Shown: positions 34,819 through 52,082 of the stretch, piece by piece | Layout of the letters: each line of letters begins with the position of its first letter | How positions within the stretch are numbered: position 1 is the stretch's first letter | The notes under the pieces: generated by a model | Told to the model about the DNA's origin: nothing | Databases searched by the model: none | The model's input: the letters and a program-made list of their open reading frames with translations, nothing else | Program-made: the position numbers and the translations under genes | Origin: Oscillospiraceae bacterium | Lineage (GTDB): Bacteria; Bacillota; Clostridia; Oscillospirales; CAG-272 | Direction: 5' to 3' | DNA: 52,925 bases | NCBI GenBank assembly: GCA_015064525.1 | Contig: SVSC01000002.1 | Coordinates: forward strand, 1 to 52,925

Positions 34819-37035
34819 ATGAAACAGCACGCGAAAAAGCTACCGATCATCCTGGTCTCTGCCATGCTCCTTCTTGGAATCCTTGCAGGCTTGATCATGG
34901 CGATCAGCGGTGGAACACAGCCCTTTACGGGTCAGATCGCCGCTTACTGCGATGCACTTGTGGCACAAGGCTTTCCCGAGGACTATGCTACCGCTCTGAC
35001 AAGGCTCCACCTTCTCCATCCGAATTGGGAGTTTGAGCCTCTTCTGATCACCGAAACCAACAAGGATTACACCTGGGCGCACGTGATCGACAAGGAAACT
35101 GAAAATCCCGCCACAAACCTCATCTCCGCATCCGATACATATTCCGATTATCGTCATCCCTTTAACCGCGAGCTTTATGATTCGGGCTTCTATCAGCCCT
35201 CCCGCTCCGCGGTGGAATATTTTATGGATCCGCGCAACTTCCTCAACGAAGCCGATATTTTTCAGTTCTACGATCTTTCGGGCTCGAAAAATCCCTCGAT
35301 TGATGCTGTTAAGGCGGTTCTCAGCGGAACGTTCATGGAGAACGCCGTATTGGAAAACGGTGTTACCTACGCCGACTATCTGGTGCAGATCGGCGCTGAA
35401 ATCGGAATTGATCCCGTGTACCTTGCGGTCAAGCTCCGCCAGGAGCAGGGCGTTGGCGGCACCTCCCCCATCATTTCGGGGACTTGCGGCGATCTGTTGC
35501 TCAAGTATTACGATCAGCAAACCGAAAAAACCGAGCAAGGAAAGCCGATCAATCCTCCAAAGCCCGGGGACGAGGATCCTTCGGCGCTGACCGATCTCAA
35601 CGGTCTTTACAATCCCTTTAACGTTGGCGCAGGCGGAACGGGCGTTTACCAAATTTATAAAAAAGCCATGATCCGCGCGGAGGAAGGAACCTCCTCCATG
35701 GCGAACGCATGGGGCGATGCCTCCTGGAGCACCATGTGGAAGGGGCTTTACGGCGGCGCGCTGTTCATCAAGGAAAAATATATCGACCGCTATCAGTCCA
35801 CCATCTATCTGCAAAAATTCAACGTGGACGGCAGGATCCCGCAAAACAATTTCTGGAGTCAGTATATGCAGAATTTGACGGGAGCGCTGACCGAGGGACG
35901 CTCCTATTTCCGCTCCTGCGCCGAGATCGGCTCGCTGGACGCTCCCTGCCGTTTTCTCATTCCCGTTTATGCGGAAATGCCGCAGGATGCCTGTTCCGAT
36001 CCCGCCCGCGGAAAATGCACCACCCTCACTCCCGCCTCCAATCGCTTTGAAACCACTTCTCTCCTGACTGCGCCCGAGCGTCTCCGTAGCACCAACGACG
36101 GCGTGTTCTGCTCTGCAACCGTTCAAGCGGGCGCCACCGAATGGAAGCTGGAGGGTAAATTCACCCACAGCTATGGAGTTCAAAGGTTGCAATACTCCTA
36201 CAACGGCGGCGAATGGATCGACTGCTCCGAGGACGGTTCCCTTTCCATTGATCTTTCCGAGAACCTTCCCGACTACGGCGAGCATATACTGGTTATCAGA
36301 GCGGTTGCCGACTACGATCCCAATGACAGCACCAAAAAACTCAGCGCAAACAGTTTGTGCGTCGCCCTGAGCCTCACCGTTCAGCCCCCTCCCTCTGTGA
36401 AGGTCAGTCTGCAAGCAGGCAACACGGTTGCCGATACCATGCACTACGTTGGAACCACACTCACCCTTCCCTCCTGCTCCGATGAAAATTTTGTTGGCTG
36501 GGTCGGCTCCAACGGCACCATTCTTCCCTCCGAGGGGAGCTTTACCGTTCGGGAGGATATTCACTACACCGCCCTTTTTGTGGATTTTCGATTGCTGGAG
36601 GGCGCGGCGCTCTCCCTGAACAGCTCCACTCCCACCCTTCGGTTCTATGCGGTGCTTCCCGAATCCGCCTATCGGATCATTCACAAGCACACGGATTTTG
36701 GTGGACAGCTCCTTGGAAGCGAAGCGATGGCAGAGCTGCAAAGCAGCTGCACCGTTCCATCTCAAAGTGGAACCGACTACCGCAGGCTTTCCTTCACCAC
36801 AGCCCCCATTTCCGAGGAGGACTACAACGCCCCCCTCTCTGCGTCGCTTTCCATGAGGGTGACCTACTCCGACGGAAGCAATAAGCAGATCACCGCCGCA
36901 GGTACCCCCACGCCGAGAAGCGCCGCGCAGCTTGCTTCCGCCGCGCTGTCCGATCCTCTTGCACATCACACGCCCGCCCAACGCGCCACGCTGGAAACCA
37001 TTTTAACCTCATCCCGAAAGGATCTCACAACATGA
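34819..37035 (+). CDS. membrane-anchored exported protein with glucosaminidase-like (GH73-like) wall-hydrolase region
   Basis: N-terminal anchor LPIILVSAMLLLGILAGLIMAI. PNWEFEPL...DPRNFLNEADIFQFYDL...IGIDPVYLAVKLRQEQG resembles the N-acetylglucosaminidase/FlgJ-type region. The C-terminal half is beta-rich and unassigned. Confidence 0.5.
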   Translation: MKQHAKKLPIILVSAMLLLGILAGLIMAISGGTQPFTGQIAAYCDALVAQGFPEDYATALTRLHLLHPNWEFEPLLITETNKDYTWAHVIDKETENPATNLISASDTYSDYRHPFNRELYDSGFYQPSRSAVEYFMDPRNFLNEADIFQFYDLSGSKNPSIDAVKAVLSGTFMENAVLENGVTYADYLVQIGAEIGIDPVYLAVKLRQEQGVGGTSPIISGTCGDLLLKYYDQQTEKTEQGKPINPPKPGDEDPSALTDLNGLYNPFNVGAGGTGVYQIYKKAMIRAEEGTSSMANAWGDASWSTMWKGLYGGALFIKEKYIDRYQSTIYLQKFNVDGRIPQNNFWSQYMQNLTGALTEGRSYFRSCAEIGSLDAPCRFLIPVYAEMPQDACSDPARGKCTTLTPASNRFETTSLLTAPERLRSTNDGVFCSATVQAGATEWKLEGKFTHSYGVQRLQYSYNGGEWIDCSEDGSLSIDLSENLPDYGEHILVIRAVADYDPNDSTKKLSANSLCVALSLTVQPPPSVKVSLQAGNTVADTMHYVGTTLTLPSCSDENFVGWVGSNGTILPSEGSFTVREDIHYTALFVDFRLLEGAALSLNSSTPTLRFYAVLPESAYRIIHKHTDFGGQLLGSEAMAELQSSCTVPSQSGTDYRRLSFTTAPISEEDYNAPLSASLSMRVTYSDGSNKQITAAGTPTPRSAAQLASAALSDPLAHHTPAQRATLETILTSSRKDLTT

Positions 37036-37871
37036 AAACCCTTGGATATTACGACGGAAGGATCGACGAGCTGGATCGCATCAGCGTTCCCATGCTGGAT
37101 CGTGCCTGCTATTTCGGTGACGGTGTTTACGACGTGACCTACAGCCGCAACTATCACATTTTCGCGCTGGAGGGGCATATTGATCACTTTTTTCAGAGCG
37201 CCGAGCTGATCTCCATTCGGCCTCCCTTCACCAAGGGCGAGCTGGCTGAATTGTTGGAGAGCTTGGTGAAAAGGATGGACAATGGCAATCTTTGGGTCTA
37301 TTTTCAGTTGAGTCGCTCCGCCGACCCTCGTACCCATGCTTTTCCCGCCACCCCCAAGCCTCGGCTCTGGGTGATGCTGAAGCCTGCGGAAATACGGGAT
37401 ACATACGCCCCCATGCGTTGCATCAGCATGGAGGACACCCGCTTCTATCATTGCAACGTAAAATCCCTCAATCTGCTCCCCAACGTGCTTGCCACGCAAG
37501 CGGCAACCGCCGCGGGTGCGGATGAATGTATCCTCCACCGAGGCAGCACCGTGACCGAATGCGCCCACTCCAATCTTTCCATTCTGAAAAACGGCGCTCT
37601 CATCACTCACCCCGCCAACGAAATGATCTATGCGGGAACGGGTCGAGCGCACCTGATCGAGCAATGCGTTTCCCATGGAATTGCCGTGGAGGAGCGCACC
37701 TACACCATGGAGGAGCTTTGGAATGCCGACGAGGTGCTGGTGACCTCTGCTTCTGCCCTTTGCGCTCCCGTGATCCAACTGGACGGAAAGCCCATCGGCG
37801 GCAAAGCTCCACACACAGTGCGTCTTTTGCAGGACGCGCTTCTGCGGGAGTATCTGGAGCAAACCAAATAA
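37032..37871 (+). CDS. dat: D-amino-acid (class IV) aminotransferase
   Basis: GYYDGRIDELDRISVPMLDRACYFGDGVYDV plus the class IV fold pattern. ATGA overlap with the upstream gene. Confidence 0.8.
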   Translation: MKTLGYYDGRIDELDRISVPMLDRACYFGDGVYDVTYSRNYHIFALEGHIDHFFQSAELISIRPPFTKGELAELLESLVKRMDNGNLWVYFQLSRSADPRTHAFPATPKPRLWVMLKPAEIRDTYAPMRCISMEDTRFYHCNVKSLNLLPNVLATQAATAAGADECILHRGSTVTECAHSNLSILKNGALITHPANEMIYAGTGRAHLIEQCVSHGIAVEERTYTMEELWNADEVLVTSASALCAPVIQLDGKPIGGKAPHTVRLLQDALLREYLEQTK

Positions 37872-37907: not shown

Positions 37908-37955
37908 ATCAAAGCGGTTGCTCCATGCTGAAAAGCATGGAGCAACCGCTTTGAT
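37908..37955. terminator. long perfect hairpin after dat
   Basis: ~21-bp stem atcaaagcggttgctccatgc/gcatggagcaaccgctttgat, loop tgaaaa. The T tract is weak (cttta). Confidence 0.6.
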
Positions 37956-37969
37956 CTTTAGCAATAGGA

Positions 37970-38248
37970 TTATTCGATTTCTATAAACCAACTGATATCA
38001 AGATTCAAAGATTCCGCATCGCAGAAATAGCCTCGATAGCGGAAGGGGTTATACAGCTCAAGCAGATTGGTTTCAAAGGCGCTGTTGCCGCTTACACCTT
38101 GCGCGGTGCAAACGCCCCACACATCATAGCTCATGCTGATGCCCGATTGGTTCAGCATGGTTTCGCTATTGTAGGTATAGGACGAATCCAATCTGCCCGT
38201 GCGGTCGTACTTGTACACCGTTACTTCATCGTTGCGGTGGTCGGTGAC
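37970..38248 (-). pseudogene. rhs relic (orphan C): two fused fragments of the RHS shell, no toxin tip
   Basis: Encodes SVTDHRNDEVTVYKYDRTGRLDSSYTYNSETMLNQSGISMSYD fused to VWGVCTAQGVSGNSAFETNLLELYNPFRYRGYF. These match the main gene around 44285-44420 and 43085-43190. It ends 19 aa later (CDAESLNLDISWFIEIE). Confidence 0.8.
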
Positions 38249-38327
38249 GGAAAGCCACAATATGTAGATCGGCTTGTCCAATGTGCGAACCATCGGGTTC
38301 ACATCCTTTCTTTGTTGTTTCGGCGCT

Positions 38328-38357
38328 CCCCGCGCCGCAATCAACAGCGGCGCGGGG
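38328..38357. repeat. GC-only palindrome, copy C (cassette boundary)
   Basis: CCCCGCGCCGC-aatcaaca-GCGGCGCGGGG, an 11-bp perfect stem. Confidence 0.9.
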
Positions 38358-38389: not shown

Positions 38390-39169
38390 TCATTTTCCTG
38401 TATTTTTGATCATCTTTCGGTTTTTCAATAAAGGATACAAACACCCCAAAAGCCACACGACAAGAAGCCCTATTATGATTCTGTTTATTGACATCATATC
38501 TTCAAATTGCAAAATCGTATTGTAGCTTTGAGTCACAAGCAAAACAGTCATCACAAGAGCAACAATCCAATAAAAAGCATTATCTCTTTTTAGTCTTTTA
38601 ATTAAGTAGGACTGTATTTGATTTGATACTTTCCCGTACTGTTTCACCTCAAATTCGTTCATCAGAAAGCGATTTACATTTTGATGCCAAAAGTATCCCA
38701 CGCCCCACATAATTGAAACCAACGAGACTGTTTTCACAGCACGATCTACATCGCTCCCACCGAAAAAGCCCAAAAAGAATAAGCAAGGAAGTAAAACAGT
38801 TCCCAAACAGATCAAAATCAACGCTGCAAGATCTTCATTTTTCAAATTTTGTATTTTTTTGAAATACTTTTCGCTTGATATTTTTTGTTTTTTTATCTCT
38901 TTGCCCTTCTGCTTTTGGTCAATCCGCAATTGCTCATCATAACTCACCTCGCGGTGACATGAAGGGCAAATATATGAATAAGTAGTCAGTTCATACTGAC
39001 TCATTCCGATATATATCGTACTTCCATGCGTGCTTGAAAAATCCTTGTCTCCCTTTTTTATGAGCCTTGTGCTTTTTTTGATCTTCAATCTCGTGCCGCA
39101 TTTGCCACAGTACATTTTTTTCAACAACATTCCTATTGGCATTTCGGCTTTGGATCCTGTCCATCCCAT
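38390..39169 (-). CDS. zinc-ribbon membrane protein (immunity-gene position of orphan B)
   Basis: ATG 39169 behind GGAGAGGAGG. CGKCG...CPSCH zinc ribbon, Lys-rich linker, then about 4 hydrophobic helices. AT-rich. Confidence 0.65.
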   Translation of the reverse strand: MGWTGSKAEMPIGMLLKKMYCGKCGTRLKIKKSTRLIKKGDKDFSSTHGSTIYIGMSQYELTTYSYICPSCHREVSYDEQLRIDQKQKGKEIKKQKISSEKYFKKIQNLKNEDLAALILICLGTVLLPCLFFLGFFGGSDVDRAVKTVSLVSIMWGVGYFWHQNVNRFLMNEFEVKQYGKVSNQIQSYLIKRLKRDNAFYWIVALVMTVLLVTQSYNTILQFEDMMSINRIIIGLLVVWLLGCLYPLLKNRKMIKNTGK

Positions 39170-39203
39170 AGCTTATTCCTCCTCTCCATATAACAGTCGC
39201 TTG

Positions 39204-39495
39204 GAACAAATTATATTTCTTTGAATCGATCTTAGAGATATTGTCTGAATTAAGAAACCTTCCCCACTGAGGATAATAATACCTACTTTGGAGATAATTG
39301 CATTCAATTTCCCAATCATAGAAATATCCACGATAGCGGAAGGGGTTATACGTCTCTACCAAAATCTACTCAAATGCGGAAACACCGCTGGCAACTTCGG
39401 GAGGCGCGCATACGCCCCACGCATCATAGCTCATGCGAATGCCCGATTGGTTCAGCATAGTTTCGCTATCGTAGGTGTAGGACGAATCCAATCTG
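39204..39495 (-). pseudogene. rhs relic (orphan B) with in-frame stop and truncated tip
   Basis: Reads GRLDSSYTYDSETMLNQSGIRMSYDAWGVCAPPEVASGVSAFE-stop(TAG)-ILVETYNPFRYRGYFYDWEIECNYLQSRYYYPQWGRFLNSDNISKIDSKKYNLF. It has the same fragment-fusion junction as orphan C. Confidence 0.75.
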
Positions 39496-39524
39496 CCCGC
39501 ACCGCTGTTGATTGCGGCGCGGGG
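39496..39524. repeat. GC-rich palindrome, copy B (loop inverted relative to copy C)
   Basis: CCCGCACCGC-tgttgatt-GCGGCGCGGG. The loop is the reverse complement of the copy C loop. There is one stem mismatch. Confidence 0.85.
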
Positions 39525-39540: not shown

Positions 39541-40179
39541 TTACGGTTCCGTCACGTGCGTGGACACAGGCTCGGTGATATTGGAAGAGATGGGTGTGGT
39601 TGTAACAGTAGTGCTGTTTGTAGTGGTGGTATCTTCCCCGCGCTCAATTTTCACTTCTTCAAAGTTGAAGAAGGGGAAGTAGGTTGCCATATACTCACCA
39701 AGCGTGATATAGGTGTATGGTTCCCCCACACGTGTTCCAACAGCAAGCAAGACACGATGCTCGTCGGAATAAGCAAAGTATATTCTCATATCGTTATGAT
39801 GTTGATCAGGAGATATGTTTTTTTTGAATACAAATGTTTTGTATGTCTCCGAGTGAATTTCGTCTTCCGGCATATGCTCGAAAAAATATTCTTTGGCTTG
39901 AACATACGTTTCTTCATCATACACCATATAAATCAGTGCTGTTTCATAACGATTGTAAGAATAGGTCATTTTTTTGTGCTGGTCAATATAGTCGTAATCC
40001 CCTCTTTCATACGGAAACATGGTTAAAAAATCCTGCGGAATCAAGGATTGAGTCAATCCGCATTGTGAATGTCCAAGGTGAAAATTTTCAATTCCTTGAG
40101 CCTGATATAAAGTGCAGGATGTCAAGAAAAGACTTATCACCATAGACAAAATCACAAAAATTCTCTTCTTCATGCTCAT
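39541..40179 (-). CDS. lipoprotein, putative immunity protein of orphan A toxin tip
   Basis: MSMKKRIFVILSMVISLFLTSC (lipobox LTSC). It starts 1 nt after the orphan A stop. AT-rich. Confidence 0.6.
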   Translation of the reverse strand: MSMKKRIFVILSMVISLFLTSCTLYQAQGIENFHLGHSQCGLTQSLIPQDFLTMFPYERGDYDYIDQHKKMTYSYNRYETALIYMVYDEETYVQAKEYFFEHMPEDEIHSETYKTFVFKKNISPDQHHNDMRIYFAYSDEHRVLLAVGTRVGEPYTYITLGEYMATYFPFFNFEEVKIERGEDTTTTNSTTVTTTPISSNITEPVSTHVTEP

Positions 40180-40180
40180 A

Positions 40181-41494
40181 TCACCATCCCTTTTCTGCGA
40201 TAAAGCGCGCAGGTAATCTCACATGCCAGCGATCATCAGGGAACGGAATAAACTCTGCTTTCCTACAATCATCCGCAAGCTCACTTAGCACAGGTATCCC
40301 CCGTTTATCAGCCCAACTTAACGCAAACCATCCGTACATATGCAAGGTATACTCTCCGTAATACATCTTAGCATAATCATCGTAATACTTATGTCCCGTT
40401 TCATGTTTTGCGTGTTTCAAGCGATCCCATCTACTTATATACCCCTGATTCACATATGCTGAGACTTCGCCGGATTCATCAAGCCCCGTGGATCCGTCCG
40501 CAAAATAGTAGTATGCTTTATTTACCGCATTGTTCAAAGAACTGTCAACGTTCTTTTTCGTGCGACGCCCTTCTTTTATTGCTTCAGATAGGTTACCGTT
40601 TTCCTCATAAACGCGATCTGCCGCAGCTAAACCTGCCATGGTTGCAATAAAATCAGTTACTACACGAGTAACAATTTCCAAAAACACACCCCAATCCCAT
40701 TCACCGGTAGGATCATACCCCATTACCGGATTATTGCCACAATATGTGAACAAATTATAGGATAAGATTTCACCATCCATTCCCAAATTAGACAAGCCAT
40801 CCGCATTGAGGAATCTACACCATTCGGGATTATAATACCTGCTTTGGAGATAGTAGTATTTTGTTTCCGCATCGTAGAAGTAGCCTCTGTAGCGGAAGGG
40901 GTTATACAACTCAAGCAGATTGGTTTCAAAGGCGCTGTTTCCGCTTACACCTTGCGCGTTGCAAACGCCCCACGCATCATAGGTGTAGGCGCCGATCTTT
41001 CTGCCGGTCGAATCGTAAATGGCAACAATATCACCCTGCAAATTCTTTTCGAAGAAATAGCAACTGAAGGTTTGGGCGGGATCGGTTGATTTTCTGTACT
41101 TGATGCCTATGGGTGCCCCCGTTTCATCATAGACGAACAGCATCAAATGCTCGACATCTCTACGAACCCACTTTTGCCCTATCACCTGACTGCCGTTGAG
41201 AATATACTCATAGGTGGTCCCTTGGGCGGTCTTGCTTGTGCGGATGCCATCGGCGTTGTAGGTGAAGATGCATTCATCGGAGCTTTCATAGTACTCGCCG
41301 TACTCCGAAAAGTAGCAGTACCACATGGAAACAAGCTGTCTGCCTTCCCATTCAAACACGTAGCCCGCGCCGCTGTAGTAATCGGGATCATAATAGCCCA
41401 TGAAAATGGGGTTTCCGATCTCGTCGTAGATGATCTCATCTCCGTTGTAGATGGTTAAAAGATCGCCCCAACCGGTGGGATCACCAACAACCAA
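40181..41494 (-). CDS. orphan RHS C-terminal cassette A (shell end plus alternative toxin tip; no own start signal)
   Basis: 266 aa are near-identical to the main RHS C-terminal shell through YYYLQSRYYNPEWCRFLNADG. This is followed by NNPVMGYDPTGEW and a distinct 171-aa tip containing HETGH. The track start is TTG without an SD. Confidence 0.8.
   Translation of the reverse strand: MVVGDPTGWGDLLTIYNGDEIIYDEIGNPIFMGYYDPDYYSGAGYVFEWEGRQLVSMWYCYFSEYGEYYESSDECIFTYNADGIRTSKTAQGTTYEYILNGSQVIGQKWVRRDVEHLMLFVYDETGAPIGIKYRKSTDPAQTFSCYFFEKNLQGDIVAIYDSTGRKIGAYTYDAWGVCNAQGVSGNSAFETNLLELYNPFRYRGYFYDAETKYYYLQSRYYNPEWCRFLNADGLSNLGMDGEILSYNLFTYCGNNPVMGYDPTGEWDWGVFLEIVTRVVTDFIATMAGLAAADRVYEENGNLSEAIKEGRRTKKNVDSSLNNAVNKAYYYFADGSTGLDESGEVSAYVNQGYISRWDRLKHAKHETGHKYYDDYAKMYYGEYTLHMYGWFALSWADKRGIPVLSELADDCRKAEFIPFPDDRWHVRLPARFIAEKGW
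40795..41485. repeat. direct repeat of main rhs 43000-43690 (offset 2205 nt)
   Basis: 41147-41485 is identical to 43352-43690, shown by identical 103-aa and 85-aa antisense ORFs in the track. 40795-41146 carries scattered substitutions. Confidence 0.9.
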
Positions 41495-41532: not shown

Positions 41533-41558
41533 CCCCGCGCCGCCGAAGCGGCGCGGGG
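41533..41558. repeat. GC-only palindrome, copy A (cassette boundary)
   Basis: CCCCGCGCCGC-cgaa-GCGGCGCGGGG, 6 nt after the ankyrin gene stop. Confidence 0.9.
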
Positions 41559-41564
41559 GAAAGT

Positions 41565-42401
41565 TTAAGCTTGTTGCTTCAGTAGATCCGCGATCTCGGT
41601 ATGACCTCTTTCCACGGCGTAGTCGTAGGCGGTTTTGCCATATTTATCCTGAACATCCGGTTGCGCACCGTTCTCCAACAGCAATCTAACAATACGAATA
41701 TCTGCATGGGTCCTTTGAACCGCACAAATCAAAATCGTATCTGAATACCAACGATATTGATCTACATCAATTGAGTACATTTGAAACAGAATTTCCATGG
41801 ATGCTACATCTCTGAGCATTTCATTAAGCAAGCCGGCAAAGTCATAGGTTTCCGGATCAATACCGGAGAGCATCTTTTTTAATAAAGCTTCTCCTGAAGA
41901 TCTATCTGTCTCGCCCACCATTCCCGCAACACAAGCCCCCATGGCATCAAAAATACCGTTAGAGCTACGTTGCAACGTGACATCAGCGCCATTTTGAAGC
42001 AAAACTTCTGCTATTTGATACTTGCTTTCGTGGGTAGTTAGTAAACAAATGATCAAAGGAGTTTGGGTTAGCATTGGTTCTTGGAAGTTTACATCTGCCC
42101 CCTTGGAAATCAATAGCTCAACCATTTCCAAATTTCCGCTCGAACAAGCCGCACATAGCGGATTAAAGCTATAGGAACCCCAAACATCCAATATGGTCAA
42201 TAACCATGCAGGAAGAAAAGTTGGAATCTCATCGATCGCTTCGGGATATTTTTCTATCAGACGCTCGACTTCTGATATATCATCTTTCTGTACGGCCTTT
42301 ACAATTTGCCTTGAATGATATACATCCGAGCAAAGGAACGACACTGTGATTCCTATGAACAGGAGCACAACAACAGCTACCAACAAGAGTTTTTTTCTCA
42401 T
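41565..42401 (-). CDS. membrane-anchored ankyrin-repeat protein, putative cognate immunity of the main RHS toxin
   Basis: ATG 42401 overlaps the rhs stop (ATGA) and follows GGAGG. Signal anchor MRKKLLLVAVVVLLFIGITVSF. Ankyrin repeats (NPLCAACSSGNLEMVELLISKGADVN, TPLIICLL...AEVLLQNGADV, TILICAVQRTHADIRIVRLLLENGAQPD, KTAYDYAVERGHTEIADLL). Confidence 0.75.
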   Translation of the reverse strand: MRKKLLLVAVVVLLFIGITVSFLCSDVYHSRQIVKAVQKDDISEVERLIEKYPEAIDEIPTFLPAWLLTILDVWGSYSFNPLCAACSSGNLEMVELLISKGADVNFQEPMLTQTPLIICLLTTHESKYQIAEVLLQNGADVTLQRSSNGIFDAMGACVAGMVGETDRSSGEALLKKMLSGIDPETYDFAGLLNEMLRDVASMEILFQMYSIDVDQYRWYSDTILICAVQRTHADIRIVRLLLENGAQPDVQDKYGKTAYDYAVERGHTEIADLLKQQA

Positions 42402-45400
42402 GCAAATACCTCCTCGCACCACTTAATCGGATAGTTTATAAGCGGCCCGGGATCTTCATCATTGTTTCCAAAGATAAAATACGGAATCACATCAACAAAG
42501 GTATGCCCGATCAACCCTACAATTCCATCAGCATTGACAAAATTATAGGTGCCTATATCACGCGCATCAGTTACAAGCTCCCCACCGGATCCATAGACTC
42601 CTTCTTGACCGTTGCGCCACGTAACCTTTTTGTTTCGTTTCTCACCGGCAGAAAATTGATGGAAATCATCCTTAACATTTGGGATAATGTCATCCTTATT
42701 GGTTTGCTCAGCAGTACTGAGATCATTGGGTACACCTTCATTTTTTGCAGCACGAACATCATAATGCCAAGTTTGAACTGCAAGCGCAGTGGTTGCAACT
42801 GTTGCGACTTTCCATGCAACACAAGTTAATGCCACATTTCCAGTTACAAGTCCTACACCGCAAGCCAACAGAGCACCAACCGCAACAGCCTCGGTAATCC
42901 ATCTAGGCCATGTTCCCTGTGAATCCGATTGATTGATAGGATCATTATTACAATATGCAAACATATTGTAGCTCAAGAGCCCTTGCCCTGTGCTTACATA
43001 TCCATCCGCATTGAGGAATCTGCACCATTCGGGATTATAGTACCTACTTTGGAGATAGTAGTATTTTGTTTCCGCATCGTAGAAGTAGCCTCTGTAGCGG
43101 AAGGGGTTATACAACTCAACCAGATTGGTTTCAAAGGCGCTGTTTCCGCTTACACCTTGCGCGGTGCAAACGCCCCAAGCATTATAGGTGTAGGTGCCGA
43201 TCTTTCTGCCGGTCGAATCGTAAACGGCAACAATATCCCCTTGCAGATTCTTCTCAAAGAAATAGCAATCAAACACATCTGCGGTATAATCGGATGTACG
43301 GTATTTAATACCGATGGGAGCGCCCATTTCGTCATAGACGAACAGCATCAAATGCTCGACATCTCTACGAACCCACTTTTGCCCTATCACCTGACTGCCG
43401 TTGAGAATATACTCATAGGTGGTCCCTTGGGCGGTCTTGCTTGTGCGGATGCCATCGGCGTTGTAGGTGAAGATGCATTCATCGGAGCTTTCATAGTACT
43501 CGCCGTACTCCGAAAAGTAGCAGTACCACATGGAAACAAGCTGTCTGCCTTCCCATTCAAACACGTAGCCCGCGCCGCTGTAGTAATCGGGATCATAATA
43601 GCCCATGAAAATGGGGTTTCCGATCTCGTCGTAGATGATCTCATCTCCGTTGTAGATGGTTAAAAGATCGCCCCAACCGGTGGAATCACCATAAAGGAAC
43701 ATGGAGTAATCCTGCGCTGAGCCAAGGGCTCCGGTAGTGAACGCATACTGCTTCTTTTCCAGTATATTCCCTGCGTTGTCGTAAATATACTCATAGCTGC
43801 AGTTCAACGGACGATTATCCTCGCGGATCAGCTGACCGAGGTTATCATACGCATACCGATACTGCACCACGCCGTTGGAATCGGTGATCTGCGTGATGTT
43901 ACCGCGGGAATCGTAGGTATAGTTATAGGTAGTAGCGGAAAGCACCGATGTGCCTGCCCCCACACGGATCTCGCTGGTCACTTGGGAGACCAAATGGGTG
44001 AGCTTATAGCCGTCATCAATCAGATACTCATAATTTACGTAGTTGTAGAAAGCATCCGCGTCGGAGGCGTTGAGATCAATGGTTTTATAGTCGGTTCTGC
44101 CGAACACGTCGTACTGCGGGTTGATGGTTCCCGTGATCCCGTCACCCGAAAGAGACACACGCTCCAGGTAGCCTGTTTCGTTACCGTAGGAATAATAGTA
44201 ATAGCTATCCGCACTGTAGTCGTCCCCATGGTAGTTTCCCGTGGGGCAGGCATAATCCACGCTTTGAGAAAGCCACACCAGCCGAGAGGATTCATCATAG
44301 CTCATGCGGATGCCCGATTGGTTCAGCATGGTTTCGCTATTGTAGGTATAGGAGGTGTCAAATCTTCCCGCGCGGTCGTACTTGTACACCGTTACTTCAT
44401 CGTTGCGGTGGTCGGTGACCGACGAAAGGTTGCCGCGAGAATCGTAGGCATAGGAGTAAACGGTTTCATAAGCGCCGTTTACACCTGTATTATAGCAGAT
44501 TTCTTCCACTCTGTCAAGCATATCGTACAAATATTTTACGCTTAATCCGTTTCCATAGTTCAAAACGCTTAATTTTCCGTTGTTTGCGTTGTACTCGTAG
44601 CTTGCCAGCTCATATCCACCAACGGTGACTCCCGTTGTGTTGCCGAAGGCATCGTAGGCGAAGAAATAGCTTGAGGATTCGGTGTAAATTCCCGTAAGCC
44701 GCTGGGTGACGGCATCGTAGTCGTAGTCCACCGACGCACTGTTGGTGACCTGACTATAGCTGTAGATTGGCTGGTCGGTGTTGGGATCGGTGGTGACTGT
44801 GAGCCTTGCGGGCAGCGTATGCACCAGATTCCCAATGGCGTCGTACTCATAATAAACGCCGTTGTTATCGGGTGTGGTTGCCGAGGCGATCAGCCGCCCG
44901 TTCTTTTCGTTGCGGAAATACAGCGTGACGTTGGAGCGGGTGTCCTCCTCCAAATATACCGCTCCAAAAATATGCGGAGAGTTGGAAAGATAATATTCTG
45001 TACGCTGATTGAACTGCTGATTGGTTCCATCGCTATTTTGCGTAACGGTGTTCGTTAGCAAACCATAGTCATCATAGGCGTAGGTTGTGAAATACATCTC
45101 CTGAATGTCATTTTCCGAAATGCTGTTAGGATTATAGATTCTGCCGCGCACATACCGCTTGGTGCGCTCACAAATAACACGGTTATTGGAATCATATTCG
45201 TATTCCATCACGGTTCCGCCGGAGGAAGCCGAACGAATCACGTTGTGATTTCCATCGTAAGCATTCCAAGCCCGATTATGCCCCGACATGGAGCTTGCAA
45301 GATAGCCATACTCATTGTAGCTATAAACAGCGGAGCCTGTGGAATCCACCACAAGAGAAATGTTATCGAAGGATCCCACCCCGGGGTTTTTGAGATACAG

Positions 45401-48400
45401 AAGCTTCACCGTGATGGTATCCACAATTCCTTTGCCCGGATCGGTTACAAAGGTGTTGCTCATGAACTGCCAATCGGTGATTTCCTTGTTGAAATGGAAG
45501 GTGTGGGTTTCGGTTGGCGCATCGGAGGTGCCGTTATAATACTTTACAATCACCTCAATGCCGAACACACTGCTTTCCGATTGACTTTGCGCCGTTCCCT
45601 TTGCAAAGCCGGACAGCGTGAAGAGAATCGGATCCCATTCCGCATAGAAATCATTGTCGTAATTCTGCTTTCGATCATTGTTTGCAACCGCAATTTGCTG
45701 TTGCGGAATCACGGAGGAGGTGAGGCTTTGAGAAACACGCAACACGTTACCGAACACGCCGATACCGGAGGCTCCCACAGAAACCGCGTTGGTGTTCACA
45801 TTGCTCCAAACCGAAGAAGGATTCGCTCCCGTGGTTTCAAAATGACCCATTTCGAGCATATCATACTCGGCAGTTCCCGTTGTTTTGGATAGCATGAGGT
45901 TACCCACTTCCACAACAATTTCTTGCGCAGGTGATCCCGTTACCACAACGGAAATTTTGTAGGTCTCGTTGCCTCCCGAAGCAGGCACAGTGAAATCCAG
46001 ATTTGCGAAAACGGTGGTAACGGTGGCGTAATATTCATTTACGGGAACCTCTTTCACAAAGCGATTCTGTGAATTGGTTACCGATTCGGCCTTCAAATAA
46101 ATCTGTGCCCCCTCGGCTTCAAACGTATTCACCACCATGGAAAGCGAATAGGTTCCTTCGCTGAGCGCAACATTTTGATAAATGGAAGAAGAATTCACAT
46201 TTTGATTTACCTTCAACTCTGCCCAGGAATGGCCGACATCATATCTATCCACAAGTAAGGTAGCAATACGGCGCACGGAGCCCGTGGTTTGCCAAACGTT
46301 CAACGTGGAGCCTGTATATTGCTCAAACCCACCGTTAAGCAGATAATTGGAGGAGCTTTGGGTGGTTTGCACCGAGGATTTGAGGTTGTTTTTCGCTTTT
46401 TCGTTTTCCTCGCCCACGTACTGTCCGCTTGAAGCGCCGTAGAGTCTTGTTCCATCGCTGTCGGTTGTGTAGCAGCTAACGGTTCTGCCCTCGTAGTCGA
46501 ACACGTAGGTGGTGCGAAGATCATCGTCGATGCCGCTGTAGTCCGAGGCTTCGGGATCGTCTAACACGTCGTTGGAGCCGCTTGTGGTGATCACGGTGCT
46601 GTCGGTGTTGTATTCGATCCCAATCTGCTGGCCGCTTACGTATCTCGTGCCGTTGTATGCCGACTCGGCAACGTTGATCACGCGGTTGTAGTGATCCAGC
46701 GTGTAATACAAACGGTAGCCGGTCATACCGTTTTTCACGGAATAGAGATAGCCGTTGGAATCGTAGGAATAGTCGGCAACGGCATCCACCACGAGACTGC
46801 CGTGGTTGGCGTTGGCATTGGTGTTGTAGAACGCCAGCAGCTCCGACTGGGTGAGGGTGGACTCGGTGCTCTTATGCAGGCGCACCGTTTGACGGAGATA
46901 GTTGCTGCCCGAGGTGGAAATGCTACCCGTTGGCGTTGCGGAATGGCGGAAGATCACCGCCTCGCCCGAGGTGGGATTCCACACCGCGTAGAGCAGGTAG
47001 TTGCTGTCGTACGCCAGCTTTAGCTGCTCGATGGGGGTGGTGGAGTCATTGGGATAGAGGTTGACGCCGATCGGGCGCGGACCGTAGTCGAAGGTGAACA
47101 CCACGCGGTTGCCGCTCCGATCCTCGATGGAGGTGAGATACCAGCCCGAAACCGTTCCCGCCGGCGTGCCGCCAAGATTGGTGAAATGCCGCACAGTCTC
47201 GCTTGAATCGGTAATGGTGACGGCGGTGTTTGTTTTGGCAAGGGTGAGGAGAAGACCGTCCTCATCGTCGTAGTACTTGACGTTATCCACTTCTTCACGA
47301 AGCAGGAAATAATGCTCGGTGCCGTCGGCATCCGCCCAGATCATGTAGGTGCCGATGGAGCCGTCCTTCTTCACGTAGTTCTTTTCCAGAACGGTTTCAT
47401 GAATGTTCTGCTTGAAGCCAATGGCAACGTCCGAGCCCCAATAAGAGGTTTGCACGTTGGGATACTGATATTTTTGCCCTGCCATGGAGGAATTGTAGAT
47501 CACAGTGGGCGTGTAGGGCATGAGGGCATCGGTGGAGGTGAGGGTTGGAATGGCAAACACCAAATTGCCTGTTGCGTGGTTCACCGAGCCTGCTCCCGCA
47601 AAGCCCGCGCTTTGGGAGGAATACGTCCAATAATCCTCCAGCCCCTTCATGTCTCTATACTCGATGCAAAGCACGGGACGCTCACTCACAGTGGCGCTAT
47701 CGTTGGAGCAAAAGATCGCGTCACCTACAGCAATGGTATCGGTGGCGGGGCCGAACATCATGCCGTAGTTTACGCCTGTGTACCATTTTTTCACGATGGG
47801 AGTGATATTCCATGTACAAGTGATATCCTTTGGAATATAGGTTTCTATATTGTCTCTGTAGACGGTTTCCACGTGGAAAAAATCGGTATAATTTGCCGCG
47901 GGCTTCCCCATGGAATTGGAGGTTGCCACCGTGTTGTTCCAGTTCAGGTATTGATCCCACGAGCTTGTGACGTCATACACAGCCACGTACTGAGAGACCT
48001 CCTCTGAGCTGACACACCGCATGGAGAAGGTGGCGTTGGTGATATAGGCGGAGCTCGGAAGGGTTGGCAGCGTGTTCATCCTCCAATATGTCCGCCAATG
48101 GGTGCCAACTGTCAGCTCGGCGCCGCTGAGATAGGTGGTGGTGGGCTCGGTGTAGTGAATGGAAAGATCCAGAATTGAGGAGTTATTGATCGAATAAATG
48201 GGTGGGTCGATGGTAACGGGATATGCCCGCTCGGTGTCATTCATCCATTCGCGGTCTGCGGTAATGGTAATGGTGTAGCTACCGTTACCGTGATCGACCA
48301 GCGACATGGCTACAGCTTCGGAGGTAACACCCGCTGCGTCCACAACGGTGGGGGCGGGAATTTGATAGAGCGGCGCCATGGTTTCGGGATTTGCCAGCAG

Positions 48401-49090
48401 AATGCCGCCATCCTCCGAGGCAACGGCAATCAGATTATTTAGGGAAAGGGCGAAGGCATAGGAATAGTCTTCGCCACGTGCTTTCACAATAATGTTCTCT
48501 TTGATATGCAGTCCGTTCAGAACGTACTCCAAATCAACGTTTTCCAAAATATCTTTGTATTGAACAGTTGCGCAAAGATTTTCCAAAAAGGTCATCTTTT
48601 GCAGCTCGGTCATTTCGGATTCGTCCTCCGCAGGTGCAAGAATCTCTCCGCGCACCTTCTTTTGGGCGCCGATCAGAGAAAGCTCCAGCTTGCGGTTGGC
48701 ATCATGCAGGGTGAACAAGCTTCCGCTTCCACCCGTTTTCTTTACAAACTTGACGCGAGCGTTGGAGGTGGTGATTTCACTTCCCTCCACTTGCAGGCGG
48801 TTGTCGATCTCCTTCCAATCGCCGTTTTCGTCGAGTGCGTGAACGGGAGACTCATATTGCGCCAGATAGTAGGAGCCGTTCTCCAAACGGAAGGTTTTGG
48901 AATCGGCGGTTCTCAGCTCGGTGAGCTCCATGATCTCCTCGGACTCCGCCGAGAGGGCCTCCCCACCGTTTTGGGCAAGGGCTTGCCGAATATCCTCGGC
49001 AAACACAGAAAGGGGCAAGGAAAGCAACACCAACAGAAGGGATAAAAAGACAGACAATGTTTTCACGGATAACTTCCTGATTTTTTTCAT
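42398..49090 (-). CDS. RHS/YD-repeat polymorphic toxin with Sec signal peptide
   Basis: Signal peptide MKKIRKLSVKTLSVFLSLLLVLLSLPLSVFA. Many YD repeats. RHS core end YYYLQSRYYNPEWCRFLNADG plus PINQSDSQGTW. 169-aa variable tip. GGAG SD. Confidence 0.9.
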   Translation of the reverse strand: MKKIRKLSVKTLSVFLSLLLVLLSLPLSVFAEDIRQALAQNGGEALSAESEEIMELTELRTADSKTFRLENGSYYLAQYESPVHALDENGDWKEIDNRLQVEGSEITTSNARVKFVKKTGGSGSLFTLHDANRKLELSLIGAQKKVRGEILAPAEDESEMTELQKMTFLENLCATVQYKDILENVDLEYVLNGLHIKENIIVKARGEDYSYAFALSLNNLIAVASEDGGILLANPETMAPLYQIPAPTVVDAAGVTSEAVAMSLVDHGNGSYTITITADREWMNDTERAYPVTIDPPIYSINNSSILDLSIHYTEPTTTYLSGAELTVGTHWRTYWRMNTLPTLPSSAYITNATFSMRCVSSEEVSQYVAVYDVTSSWDQYLNWNNTVATSNSMGKPAANYTDFFHVETVYRDNIETYIPKDITCTWNITPIVKKWYTGVNYGMMFGPATDTIAVGDAIFCSNDSATVSERPVLCIEYRDMKGLEDYWTYSSQSAGFAGAGSVNHATGNLVFAIPTLTSTDALMPYTPTVIYNSSMAGQKYQYPNVQTSYWGSDVAIGFKQNIHETVLEKNYVKKDGSIGTYMIWADADGTEHYFLLREEVDNVKYYDDEDGLLLTLAKTNTAVTITDSSETVRHFTNLGGTPAGTVSGWYLTSIEDRSGNRVVFTFDYGPRPIGVNLYPNDSTTPIEQLKLAYDSNYLLYAVWNPTSGEAVIFRHSATPTGSISTSGSNYLRQTVRLHKSTESTLTQSELLAFYNTNANANHGSLVVDAVADYSYDSNGYLYSVKNGMTGYRLYYTLDHYNRVINVAESAYNGTRYVSGQQIGIEYNTDSTVITTSGSNDVLDDPEASDYSGIDDDLRTTYVFDYEGRTVSCYTTDSDGTRLYGASSGQYVGEENEKAKNNLKSSVQTTQSSSNYLLNGGFEQYTGSTLNVWQTTGSVRRIATLLVDRYDVGHSWAELKVNQNVNSSSIYQNVALSEGTYSLSMVVNTFEAEGAQIYLKAESVTNSQNRFVKEVPVNEYYATVTTVFANLDFTVPASGGNETYKISVVVTGSPAQEIVVEVGNLMLSKTTGTAEYDMLEMGHFETTGANPSSVWSNVNTNAVSVGASGIGVFGNVLRVSQSLTSSVIPQQQIAVANNDRKQNYDNDFYAEWDPILFTLSGFAKGTAQSQSESSVFGIEVIVKYYNGTSDAPTETHTFHFNKEITDWQFMSNTFVTDPGKGIVDTITVKLLYLKNPGVGSFDNISLVVDSTGSAVYSYNEYGYLASSMSGHNRAWNAYDGNHNVIRSASSGGTVMEYEYDSNNRVICERTKRYVRGRIYNPNSISENDIQEMYFTTYAYDDYGLLTNTVTQNSDGTNQQFNQRTEYYLSNSPHIFGAVYLEEDTRSNVTLYFRNEKNGRLIASATTPDNNGVYYEYDAIGNLVHTLPARLTVTTDPNTDQPIYSYSQVTNSASVDYDYDAVTQRLTGIYTESSSYFFAYDAFGNTTGVTVGGYELASYEYNANNGKLSVLNYGNGLSVKYLYDMLDRVEEICYNTGVNGAYETVYSYAYDSRGNLSSVTDHRNDEVTVYKYDRAGRFDTSYTYNSETMLNQSGIRMSYDESSRLVWLSQSVDYACPTGNYHGDDYSADSYYYYSYGNETGYLERVSLSGDGITGTINPQYDVFGRTDYKTIDLNASDADAFYNYVNYEYLIDDGYKLTHLVSQVTSEIRVGAGTSVLSATTYNYTYDSRGNITQITDSNGVVQYRYAYDNLGQLIREDNRPLNCSYEYIYDNAGNILEKKQYAFTTGALGSAQDYSMFLYGDSTGWGDLLTIYNGDEIIYDEIGNPIFMGYYDPDYYSGAGYVFEWEGRQLVSMWYCYFSEYGEYYESSDECIFTYNADGIRTSKTAQGTTYEYILNGSQVIGQKWVRRDVEHLMLFVYDEMGAPIGIKYRTSDYTADVFDCYFFEKNLQGDIVAVYDSTGRKIGTYTYNAWGVCTAQGVSGNSAFETNLVELYNPFRYRGYFYDAETKYYYLQSRYYNPEWCRFLNADGYVSTGQGLLSYNMFAYCNNDPINQSDSQGTWPRWITEAVAVGALLACGVGLVTGNVALTCVAWKVATVATTALAVQTWHYDVRAAKNEGVPNDLSTAEQTNKDDIIPNVKDDFHQFSAGEKRNKKVTWRNGQEGVYGSGGELVTDARDIGTYNFVNADGIVGLIGHTFVDVIPYFIFGNNDEDPGPLINYPIKWCEEVFA

Positions 49091-50707: not shown

Positions 50708-51481
50708 TTATTTAACGCTTTCGGCAAAGGAAATTAAATCTGATTTTGCTAAAAAGCCCTGTATTTTATAGACATATTCGCCGTCAAACCAAGTAATAGC
50801 ATTAAATTCATTCTCGCCATAAAACAATATAACGGCGGGGTTACCATTTATTTCCATATGTTTTAAATTAAGTTCCGAATTATCATACCACATTTCATCC
50901 TTTAGTAGCGACTGAGTAAAGGTAAAACACCATTCATCTTCTTGACTGAAATCCAGTGTATAAACCAAACCACTAACAAATGTTTCCACACCAATATACC
51001 CCTCCGGCAATCCCTGCGGCTTGCGGTACTCCAGAATAACGGTGGGAACCTCCGCGGCGGGCGGCTGAGGCTCGGTGACACTTGGTTCCGTTGGTGTTCC
51101 AAGGCTTTCGGCAGGCGGTGCCTGCGTTTCAGCGGCATCCTCCGAGGGTGACGGTACAAAGCTTACAGAAACAAAATCCTCATACCACGAAACAATGCTT
51201 CTCCAAATGGTTTTTCCCAAGCCCGAAACGCTCAACGTCAGCACGATCATGGCGGTAATGATTGCGGCAATTGCCAGCACGCGGGCGGGCGATTTTCTGC
51301 GAACCGCTCCGAATTTCGGCGTATGGCTTTCAATGGTCTTGCGCACCTTTTCGTCGATCCAATCGGGGCGAACCACCGAGGATGTATCCATGGCGGCAAT
51401 GGAGGCTGCCGTCTTTTTTGCATGCTCCTCCAGCGCCAAACAAAGCAACGTATCCAGTTGCTTTTCAACGCTTCTTCTCAT
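50708..51481 (-). CDS. single-pass membrane protein, anti-sigma-factor-like (DUF4367-like C-terminal domain)
   Basis: ATG 51481 overlaps the sigma stop (ATGA). Cytoplasmic N-terminal region, TM VLAIAAIITAMIVLTLSVSGL, Pro-rich linker, and a C-terminal ~120-aa exported domain. Confidence 0.5.
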   Translation of the reverse strand: MRRSVEKQLDTLLCLALEEHAKKTAASIAAMDTSSVVRPDWIDEKVRKTIESHTPKFGAVRRKSPARVLAIAAIITAMIVLTLSVSGLGKTIWRSIVSWYEDFVSVSFVPSPSEDAAETQAPPAESLGTPTEPSVTEPQPPAAEVPTVILEYRKPQGLPEGYIGVETFVSGLVYTLDFSQEDEWCFTFTQSLLKDEMWYDNSELNLKHMEINGNPAVILFYGENEFNAITWFDGEYVYKIQGFLAKSDLISFAESVK

Positions 51482-52044
51482 AGCCAATTCTCCTTTCTCA
51501 ATTCCGCAAACAACCTTTTTCTCATGCGGGAAATGCAAACACGGTAGGTATTCGGTGTGATTCCAAGGATTTTTGCTGCATCAGCATCGGAAAAGCCATA
51601 GATGAACCGCAAATAAAGCATATCCACATAGCGCGCTCCCATGCCGCTAACGATCTGCTCCGCCCGCGCGATCAGCTCTTTTGAGAATACAATACGGTTC
51701 ACGTCGGCGGAATAATCCACAATGTCAAACTCCATGCCATCCTCATCGCGTAAGGTTGACGCTTCATGTTGCATTCTCCGCTTGATTTTATGATACCGAT
51801 TGAGGGCATTGTTCCGACAGCACATGTGCAGAAAACAGCTTTGATGCGTTGCGTCCATTTCACGGAAGGACTGCAAGCTGTCGATCAGAATAACCACGGT
51901 ATCATGAACGCAATCCCAGCAATCATCCGCCAGCTCCAAAATCCGATTAGCGGTTTCAAAAAGCTGATTGCAATTTTCACGATAAATGCCATCCACGTAA
52001 TCCCTGTCGTTTTCATCTCGAATTGCCGCTATGATCGGTAGCAT
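51478..52044 (-). CDS. sigma-70 family (ECF-like) RNA polymerase sigma factor
   Basis: Region 4 HTH YLRFIYGFSDADAAKILGITPNTYRVCISRMRKRL. Region 2-like DCVHDTVVILIDSL. ATG 52044 behind AGAGGGA. The track start at 52077 lies about 6 nt from the -10 box. Confidence 0.7.
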   Translation of the reverse strand: MLPIIAAIRDENDRDYVDGIYRENCNQLFETANRILELADDCWDCVHDTVVILIDSLQSFREMDATHQSCFLHMCCRNNALNRYHKIKRRMQHEASTLRDEDGMEFDIVDYSADVNRIVFSKELIARAEQIVSGMGARYVDMLYLRFIYGFSDADAAKILGITPNTYRVCISRMRKRLFAELRKENWL

Positions 52045-52082
52045 TTTTATCTTTCCCTCTTTCATTGTTTTTTTCATTGTTC

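Follow-up and report, generated by a model that had tools for sequence, protein, structure and literature searches.

The window analysed here is the whole 52,925-nucleotide stretch of contig SVSC01000002.1 from an Oscillospiraceae bacterium. Its minus strand carries a gene for a 2230-residue Rhs protein (Pfam PF05593, RHS_repeat, E=4.6e-16) and, directly downstream, a gene for a membrane-anchored ankyrin-repeat protein. A YD/RHS shell, a variable tip after a core-end motif and a downstream immunity gene are all present, and these are the hallmarks of the Rhs/YD polymorphic toxins. An Rhs toxin with its immunity gene is a known kind of system. What is new is the toxin domain at the end of the tip: its family is large, widespread and so far undescribed, and its fold has essentially no match. 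The main features of the locus are as follows; a slash marks a boundary.

42398–49090, minus strand: rhs/YD-repeat polymorphic toxin gene (open reading frame, ORF, of 2230 aa; Pfam RHS_repeat)
About 48998–49090, minus strand: N-terminal Sec signal peptide of the Rhs protein, MKKIRKLSVKTLSVFLSLLLVLLSLPLSVFA/ED, read from the sequence
42908–42949, minus strand: end of the Rhs core, NNDPINQSDSQGTW, residues 2048–2061, the junction between shell and variable tip
42776–42904, minus strand: hydrophobic helical hairpin, residues 2063–2105 (AlphaFold2 and hydropathy)
42401–42781, minus strand: polar toxin domain, residues 2104–2230 (profile family and model)
42409–42413 and 42398–42401, minus strand: GGAGG and the ATGA stop/start overlap, for translational coupling (sequence)
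41565–42401, minus strand: immunity gene, encoding a 278-aa ankyrin-repeat protein (Pfam Ank_2)
42327–42401, minus strand: signal anchor of the ankyrin protein, residues 1–25 (N-region/h-region analysis)
41568–42326, minus strand: predicted ankyrin ectodomain

The toxin tip and its polar domain

The tip comprises the last 169–170 residues of the Rhs protein (42401–42910), after ...PINQSDSQGT/WPRWIT. The core sequence at this boundary reads ...YCNNDPINQSDSQGTW/PRWIT... and is followed by about 170 residues. The motif NNPxNxxDxxGxW stands directly before the tip in the window protein, in the homologues P0001–P0006 and at the related loci L005–L010, and it is also found in an orphan module, there with a different tip. 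This junction is presumed to be the site of autoproteolysis, at which the tip would be cut from the shell. The ankyrin gene, which starts MRKKLLLVAVVVLLFIGITVSFLCS, follows without a gap: its ATG (42401–42399) overlaps the TGA of rhs (42400–42398), and GGAGG lies 7 nt upstream, so that the stop/start overlap and the Shine-Dalgarno sequence of the original prediction both stand. A tblastn search found no second copy of the tip or of the ankyrin protein in the window.

A word-index search with the tip returned six relatives only, all of them behind the NNPxNxxDxxGxW junction. A first AlphaFold2 model built on 6 sequences reached a predicted local distance difference test (pLDDT) of 75, and Foldseek returned noise only. 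A profile of the tip and its relatives was then searched against 1.84 billion representatives, and it matched 1118 cluster representatives at E<=1e-3 and 278 at E<=1e-10. Nearly all matches cover the polar domain only (profile positions ~45–163), almost always at the extreme C-terminus. The database names of the members are all "hypothetical". Neither the polar domain nor the whole tip has a model in Pfam, NCBIfam or PHROGs, and 74 members were also scanned against Pfam. The original prediction, made without database searches, that the tip carries no recognisable motif is thus borne out.

Conservation was analysed in an alignment of 74 diverse sequences with a mean column identity of 27%; adding 2103 to the polar-domain number gives the Rhs residue number. 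H41, K52, E60, N80, P100 and N106 (H2144, K2155, E2163, N2183, P2203 and N2209) are invariant. At least 90% conserved are H6, R10, N50, D57, G58, V70, G77, T78, Y79, H93, D97, G105 and D110 (among them, in Rhs numbering, H2109, R2113, N2153, D2160, G2161, G2180-T-Y, H2196, D2200, G2208 and D2213). The family consensus is HYxRN..N..LP..EA..GW....(C)HQF....NxKYVSPDGxxE(A/V)IYDxxGxLVTDPxDxGTYNF.P....GHxxxDVxPWxxWGNSxxDxT....R. The AlphaFold2 model based on this alignment has a pLDDT of 95.3 and a predicted template modelling score (pTM) of 0.86. It contains helices at residues 2–13, 21–26, 86–104 and 113–126, strands at 51–55 and 60–63, and a short third strand at about 68–69. Since 6 invariant and 12 nearly invariant polar or Gly residues are kept across the 74 sequences in a compact, confidently modelled fold, the polar domain looks like an enzyme.

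However, no described enzyme class matches this putative enzyme. At a threshold of E<=0.001, a Foldseek search with the polar-domain model matched none of 350,542 PDB chains and nothing in BFVD. No confident match to a nuclease, deaminase or ADP-ribosyltransferase came from the PDB by sequence profile or by fold. Several specific identities were considered and rejected. The 6-sequence profile had pointed at E=0.11–0.5 to the RNase A superfamily, as in Yersinia kristensenii CdiA-CT (C-terminal toxin region), with seminal RNase at E=0.11; the aligned segment was a non-catalytic loop, the match was lost with the 74-sequence profile, and it is absent from the Foldseek results. Membership in Lipocone or TelC has no Pfam or fold support, and helix count and residue order depart from the published definition. 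ColM is not among the Pfam matches listed for the 74 members (E<=10), and no ColM structure is among the Foldseek matches. A reading of N-x-K-x4-D as similar to the HKD motif of phospholipase D is regarded as coincidence, with Asn at the first position in 111 of 119 sequences and no phospholipase D fold match. A reading of YGSGG and H...D as similar to secreted phospholipase A2 fails on the order of the elements, which differs from that familiar in this family, and there is no phospholipase A2 fold match.

The best and only match of the 74-sequence profile in the PDB is the AMOP domain of human Isthmin-1 (ISM1; 9C6T), at E=0.1 and over GTpN...HykVDVLPWII. The top two Foldseek matches are the same entry (E=0.54, TM score 0.42). 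With the ISM1 sequence verified against the 9C6T chain, hhalign aligned toxin and ISM1 with a probability of 90.7% and P=1.3e-6 over 42 columns (IYxxxGxLVT...GT(Y/P)N...HxxVDVLPWII). The score of 40.6 compares with 11.5 +/- 2.3 for 400 ISM1 shuffles, whose maximum was 20.6. Under relaxed settings the alignment stays collinear to 104 columns, with weaker similarity reaching the N-x-LP and Trp positions. Because sequence and fold searches agree on one entry, each with a marginal database statistic, we consider that the tip domain is probably a distant homologue of AMOP. It is not a member of that family, since the Pfam AMOP model (PF03782) stays below threshold (1 of 74 members, E=0.11) and the AMOP cysteines are absent: the window polar domain has a single Cys, and the alignment has no conserved Cys column. 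A homologue search with a 41-aa ISM1 fragment gave no match.

The ISM1 AMOP domain is disulfide-stabilised, with five central strands, and represents a distinct fold of unknown mechanism (PMC12000326). AMOP resembles the tip domain, as we interpret it here, in being extracellular. It differs in being eukaryotic, about 50 residues longer, disulfide-rich and without a known enzymatic role, and the invariant Glu of the toxin aligns with a His in ISM1. In the searchable literature we found no link of AMOP to bacterial toxins. It is conceivable, though we regard it as doubtful, that the tip domain founds a so far unnamed superfamily of toxin enzymes directed at the envelope, with no fewer than 1100 clusters (50% identity) on Rhs, type VII secretion system (T7SS), MafB, MuF and phage-tag carriers, and is the bacterial homologue, possibly the progenitor, of metazoan AMOP (Isthmin, MUC4, SUSD2). 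If so, the obscure function of AMOP could be approached through an active-site-like constellation (GT-x-N and H-x3-D-V-L-P-W), and the toxin would represent new chemistry against membrane-linked cell-wall precursors or lipids.

The same relationship could be read in another way, with the tip as an AMOP-like adhesion or ligand-binding domain that blocks an essential surface target without catalysis. The only detectable relative, Isthmin-1 AMOP, is indeed extracellular and without known catalysis. However, invariant His, Lys, Glu, Asn and Asp across very divergent sequences are typical of active sites, and the domain is invariably located at the toxin tip and comes with immunity genes of its own. 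We therefore think that a non-catalytic binder is very unlikely.

The carriers of the domain are those of polymorphic toxins. RHS repeats occur in 13 of 51 long family members. Other carriers have LXG, WXG100 or PT-HINT domains, the MafB N-terminal domain or an adjacent MuF fragment, and there are also a fusion to a class-3 lipase (P0141) and a short N-terminal DUF7211 tag. Because the domain is C-terminal on Rhs, LXG, WXG100, PT-HINT and MafB carriers, and the window has orphan rhs C-terminal modules, the sequence evidence identifies the polar domain as a polymorphic-toxin tip. On a 76-kb metagenomic contig (L022, 192–6645), the tagged protein P0210 is one of at least seven consecutive ORFs that start with the DUF7211 motif HYGxKGMKWGxR, beside a phage connector gene. 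These ORFs look like a phage-borne set of tagged cargo with variable C-termini.

In the window protein the polar domain of 127 residues is preceded by a hydrophobic helical hairpin. The AlphaFold2 helices span tip residues 3–23 and 26–57 (block pLDDT 81–95). Both are rich in Ala, Val, Gly and Thr and hydrophobic (Kyte-Doolittle 19-mers >=1.6), with an uncharged TGN turn between them and aromatic residues on the flanks (WPRW ... TWHY). The second helix is continuous with the polar-domain helix that bears the conserved H6 and R10. Two hydrophobic helices and a polar domain were what the original prediction had described, and hydropathy and model agree with it; the hairpin, however, is not the core of the toxin. 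A hydrophobic segment precedes the polar domain in only 27 of the 101 representatives with enough upstream sequence. Since nearly all profile matches also cover the polar domain only, it is this domain that the family conserves, with the hairpin as an accessory in one subgroup. At L011 a Lys-rich amphipathic linker takes the place of the hairpin, and in P0141 the class-3-lipase domain (GHSLGG) is fused upstream of the toxin domain. The further suggestion that the TG of the hairpin is that of pre-toxin TG modules was not upheld: there is no Pfam PT-TG match at E<=1, and P0003, P0004 and P0006 do not keep the TG turn.

Immunity partners and the site of action

The window ankyrin protein begins with MRKK and LLLVAVVVLLFIGITVSFLCS, i.e., a classic signal anchor with an uncharged core of 21 residues. 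Pfam detects Ank_2 at E=7e-23 and Ank at E=9e-22, the latter in four matched stretches. The four or more repeats originally read from the sequence thus stand, and the N-terminus agrees with the anchor read there. Orthologues score between E=1e-15 and E=1e-31. The anchored ankyrin partners form one collinear family, 22–32% identical to the window protein and located downstream of related toxins, and the toxin with its anchored ankyrin protein recurs in 10 further independent loci, which speaks against a chance pairing.

Related loci were retrieved with a 13-sequence alignment. They comprise 17 genomic loci, mostly from metagenome-assembled genomes of gut Clostridia; the remaining loci are from Paenibacillus, Sphingomonas, Phycisphaerae, Emcibacteraceae and Kuenenia. 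The gene immediately downstream of the toxin could be assigned in 19 loci, the window included:

Ankyrin protein with a signal anchor or lipobox, 11 loci: the window, L005, L006, L007, L008, L010, L011, L012, L015, L019 and L023
Polytopic membrane protein of 90–270 aa, 4 loci: L016 (4417–4752), L017 (4276–4548), L025 (3520–4332) and L026 (2289–2597)
Signal-peptide or lipoprotein partner of another fold, 3 loci: L018, L020 and L021
Ankyrin protein without an anchor, 1 locus: L024

Exported or membrane-embedded partners are thus predicted in 18 of the 19. All ten anchored ankyrin partners examined have an N-region with 2–4 Lys or Arg and an uncharged core of 18–21 residues, and inspection shows the same in L023; the partner in L012 has the lipobox LGGC. 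Ankyrin partners accompany toxins with and without the hairpin. The four loci with polytopic partners are from Paenibacillus, a Sphingomonas Rhs protein, a MuF-type toxin of Lentisphaeria and a metagenome. From the positive-inside rule, the original prediction had placed the ankyrin domain outside the membrane and the action of the toxin there too. The comparative evidence adds to this rule, and because nearly all partners are exported or embedded in the membrane, action of the polar domain outside or at the membrane is supported, with L024 as the exception.

A toxin with a hydrophobic hairpin could instead be a pore former, in which the Ala/Gly/Val-rich helices oligomerise and depolarise the membrane, and the polar domain only targets or regulates. 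The hydrophobicity of the hairpin, its spacing of small residues and its uncharged turn would suit this role, and the polytopic immunity proteins in four related loci are typical of pore formers. The glycine-zipper toxins TelE, EsxX and Tse5-CT offer parallels, and glycine-zipper LXG toxins with membrane immunity are on record. However, about 74 of the 101 representatives have no hydrophobic segment and keep every invariant polar residue. Hairpin-less toxins have ankyrin partners just as often (L010, L011, L012, L015, L019 and L023), and the polytopic partners go with hairpin-less toxins (L016, L017, L025 and L026). We therefore consider pore formation quite unlikely.

The hairpin could also carry the polar domain across the target membrane to act as an enzyme in the cytoplasm, with the ankyrin protein intercepting it before entry. 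The anchor-less ankyrin partner of L024 and a toxin-ankyrin fusion (P0050) would fit such a route, and Imm-ank proteins accompany nucleases and deaminases in the 2012 survey of polymorphic toxins (PMC3482391). Against this stand the 18 of 19 partners that are exported or membrane proteins and the lack of a nuclease, deaminase or ADP-ribosyltransferase signal. The RNase A hint (E=0.11) was lost with the deeper profile and is absent from the fold search, and most family members have no hairpin. On balance, a cytoplasmic target is highly improbable.

Proposed mechanism and significance

We lean towards the view that the locus encodes an Rhs-delivered antibacterial toxin-immunity pair, and that the toxin is an enzyme which, held at the outer surface of the membrane, attacks a membrane-associated molecule of the envelope. 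In this mechanism, the Rhs protein would be exported by Sec, and its shell probably encloses the tip, which starts after ...DxxGxW. At a neighbouring cell the tip would be released, presumably by cleavage. Since the TGN turn is uncharged and both flanks are aromatic, the hairpin would insert from outside into the outer leaflet of the cytoplasmic membrane, with both ends outside. Its second helix passes directly into the polar-domain helix with H6 and R10 and may thereby hold an active-site-like constellation at the membrane surface (His, Arg, His, Asn-x-Lys, Asp-Gly-x-x-Glu, GTYN, His-x3-Asp, Gly-Asn and Asp). The polar domain would most likely hydrolyse or modify an envelope substrate associated with the membrane, for which a lipid-linked precursor of the cell wall (such as lipid II or undecaprenyl pyrophosphate) and a phospholipid or lipoteichoic head group are candidates. 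We hold any particular substrate with less confidence than the mechanism as a whole. Siblings would be protected by the ankyrin protein as a type-II membrane protein, whose repeats are predicted to face the wall zone and may sequester the polar domain.

The polar domain could instead act in the wall zone as a hydrolase of peptidoglycan or wall teichoic acid. A peptidoglycan amidase or peptidase would be just as compatible with exported immunity and with conserved His, Asp and Glu as possible metal ligands. However, the PDB fold search and Pfam gave no similarity to known peptidoglycan hydrolase folds, and polytopic immunity, the cytoplasmic ankyrin variant and the membrane-anchoring accessories better fit a membrane substrate. 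We regard such a wall hydrolase as unlikely. We favour a membrane substrate over one confined to the wall because the hairpin helix runs into the helix with H6 and R10, because the turn is uncharged and the flanks aromatic, and because relatives have the Lys-rich amphipathic linker (L011) or the lipase domain (P0141) instead. A substrate that is reachable from either leaflet would also fit the rare cytoplasmic ankyrin variant, which again favours the membrane.

Several observations weigh against an envelope enzyme acting from outside. At L024 (3001–4480), an ankyrin partner of the same family has no anchor and lies 19 nt behind a toxin relative without a signal. P0050, a 468-aa toxin-ankyrin fusion, also has no signal and represents the same type of pair. 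Thus, in some lineages the toxin can meet its inhibitor in the cytoplasm. The second hairpin helix of the window protein has a Lys in mid-helix. The topology calls are based on N-region/h-region rules and lipoboxes. The Pfam and Foldseek searches matched the domain neither to a known catalytic motif nor to the fold of a solved enzyme, and AMOP, the only structural relative, has no known enzymatic function.

Neither Pfam, NCBIfam, PHROGs nor the PDB contains the domain, although it occurs widely in gut Clostridia and also elsewhere. Its immunity partners, consistently exported or set in the membrane, place it among the few toxin families for which killing from outside the cytoplasm is predicted. 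It is a candidate for a new enzymatic activity on the assembly line of the cell envelope, which is relevant to antibiotic targets, as for colicin M and TelC. If the tentative AMOP link holds, an extracellular domain of animals would gain a bacterial, and probably enzymatic, relative.

Orphan modules, neighbouring genes and comparison with known systems

Two or three orphan rhs C-terminal fragments lie downstream of the immunity gene, with repeats 89–94% identical to the main rhs gene (repeats D1–D3). The fragments, their partners and the surrounding genes are:

41534–41557, strand not applicable: GC-rich palindrome CCCGCGCCGC...GCGGCGCGGG, just behind the immunity gene
40181–41494, minus strand: first orphan rhs fragment, repeats 89–93% identical, with a different and likewise unrecognised tip
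39541–40179, minus strand: partner of the first orphan, a 212-aa lipoprotein (lipobox LTSC)
38991–39362, 38390–39169 and 37970–38344, all minus strand: ORFs among which are two more degraded rhs fragments
38390–39169, minus strand: partner of the second orphan, 259 aa, with several hydrophobic helices (multiple transmembrane segments) and a zinc ribbon of two CxxC motifs
37909–37954: strong terminator with a 20-bp stem, which ends the array
37032–37871: class IV (D-amino-acid-type) aminotransferase, after the 738-aa protein
34819–37035, plus strand: 738-aa protein adjoining the toxin array, without a Pfam match and with a membrane anchor or signal sequence at its N-terminus
50708–51538 and 51478–52077, minus strand: extracytoplasmic function (ECF)-type sigma factor (Sigma70_r4_2) and DUF4367 anti-sigma-like protein, directly upstream of rhs on the same strand

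The lipobox of its neighbour indicates that the toxin of the first orphan, the second toxin of the locus, has an exported partner too. The palindrome pattern has 7 matches, with 0.18 expected, and it is found wherever an immunity gene gives way to the following orphan rhs fragment (41534–41557, 39514–39523 and 38329–38356). It may be a terminator, or else a recombination or boundary element. The sigma factor and DUF4367 protein may regulate the toxin locus. With ClpC, a McsB-type kinase, Dxs and the ECF sigma/DUF4367 pair as flanking genes, the locus is chromosomal and belongs to a Bacillota (Gram-positive) bacterium.

In its architecture the system agrees with the WapA-type Rhs/YD toxins of Gram-positive bacteria. 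It shares with them the Sec signal, the YD/RHS repeats, the core-end motif with a variable tip, an immunity gene directly downstream, and orphan C-terminal and immunity modules with recombinogenic repeats. The WapA tips are tRNases with cytoplasmic immunity. In contrast, the window tip is an undescribed domain, and its immunity protein is predicted to lie outside the membrane.

The colicin M family of lipid II-degrading toxins is similar in its choice of immunity proteins. The conserved residues of the tip family differ from the ColM motif, DxYDx5HR, and no sequence or fold similarity was found with Pfam or Foldseek; the immunity fold of the window system is the ankyrin repeat. In the colicin M family, the anchored Cmi and BmiB stand beside PmiA and BmiA, which have three to four transmembrane helices (PMC5821083). 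Both families thus have assorted immunity, N-terminally anchored extracytoplasmic proteins as well as integral membrane proteins. Colicin M toxins act at the outer face of the cytoplasmic membrane, and because the partner mix is so similar, the tip toxin is predicted to act there too.

TelC and other toxins of the Lipocone superfamily (which also includes Min-Wnt and CapCone), which cleave lipid head groups, are likewise found on Rhs, LXG and MuF carriers; their immunity proteins are all transmembrane proteins or lipoproteins, and TelC is active only outside the cell (PMC12419801). The same paper mentions neither ankyrin immunity nor AMOP. The folds differ: Lipocone is a four-helix cone with His in helix 2, Glu in helix 3 and Asp in helix 4, whereas the tip model has three long helices and a three-stranded sheet. 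No Lipocone family is among the Pfam matches of the 74 members, and Foldseek gave no match to TelC, Wnt or SAA.

The closest precedent for the immunity protein is found with Tle6, a type VI secretion system (T6SS) effector. Tle6 is an alpha/beta-hydrolase with a Ser nucleophile, whereas the tip has no GxSxG motif, a different fold and a Sec/Rhs route in a single-membrane bacterium. Every Tle6 lipase has an ankyrin-repeat protein as its immunity partner (PMC11470151). The Tle6/Tli pair (Tle of E. cloacae) shares with the window system an exported ankyrin immunity protein, in Tle6 against an effector that targets membrane lipids, and the cytosolic form of Tli parallels the anchor-less partner of L024. 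Thus, the exported ankyrin immunity family described here extends the Tle6/Tli precedent to bacteria with a single membrane.

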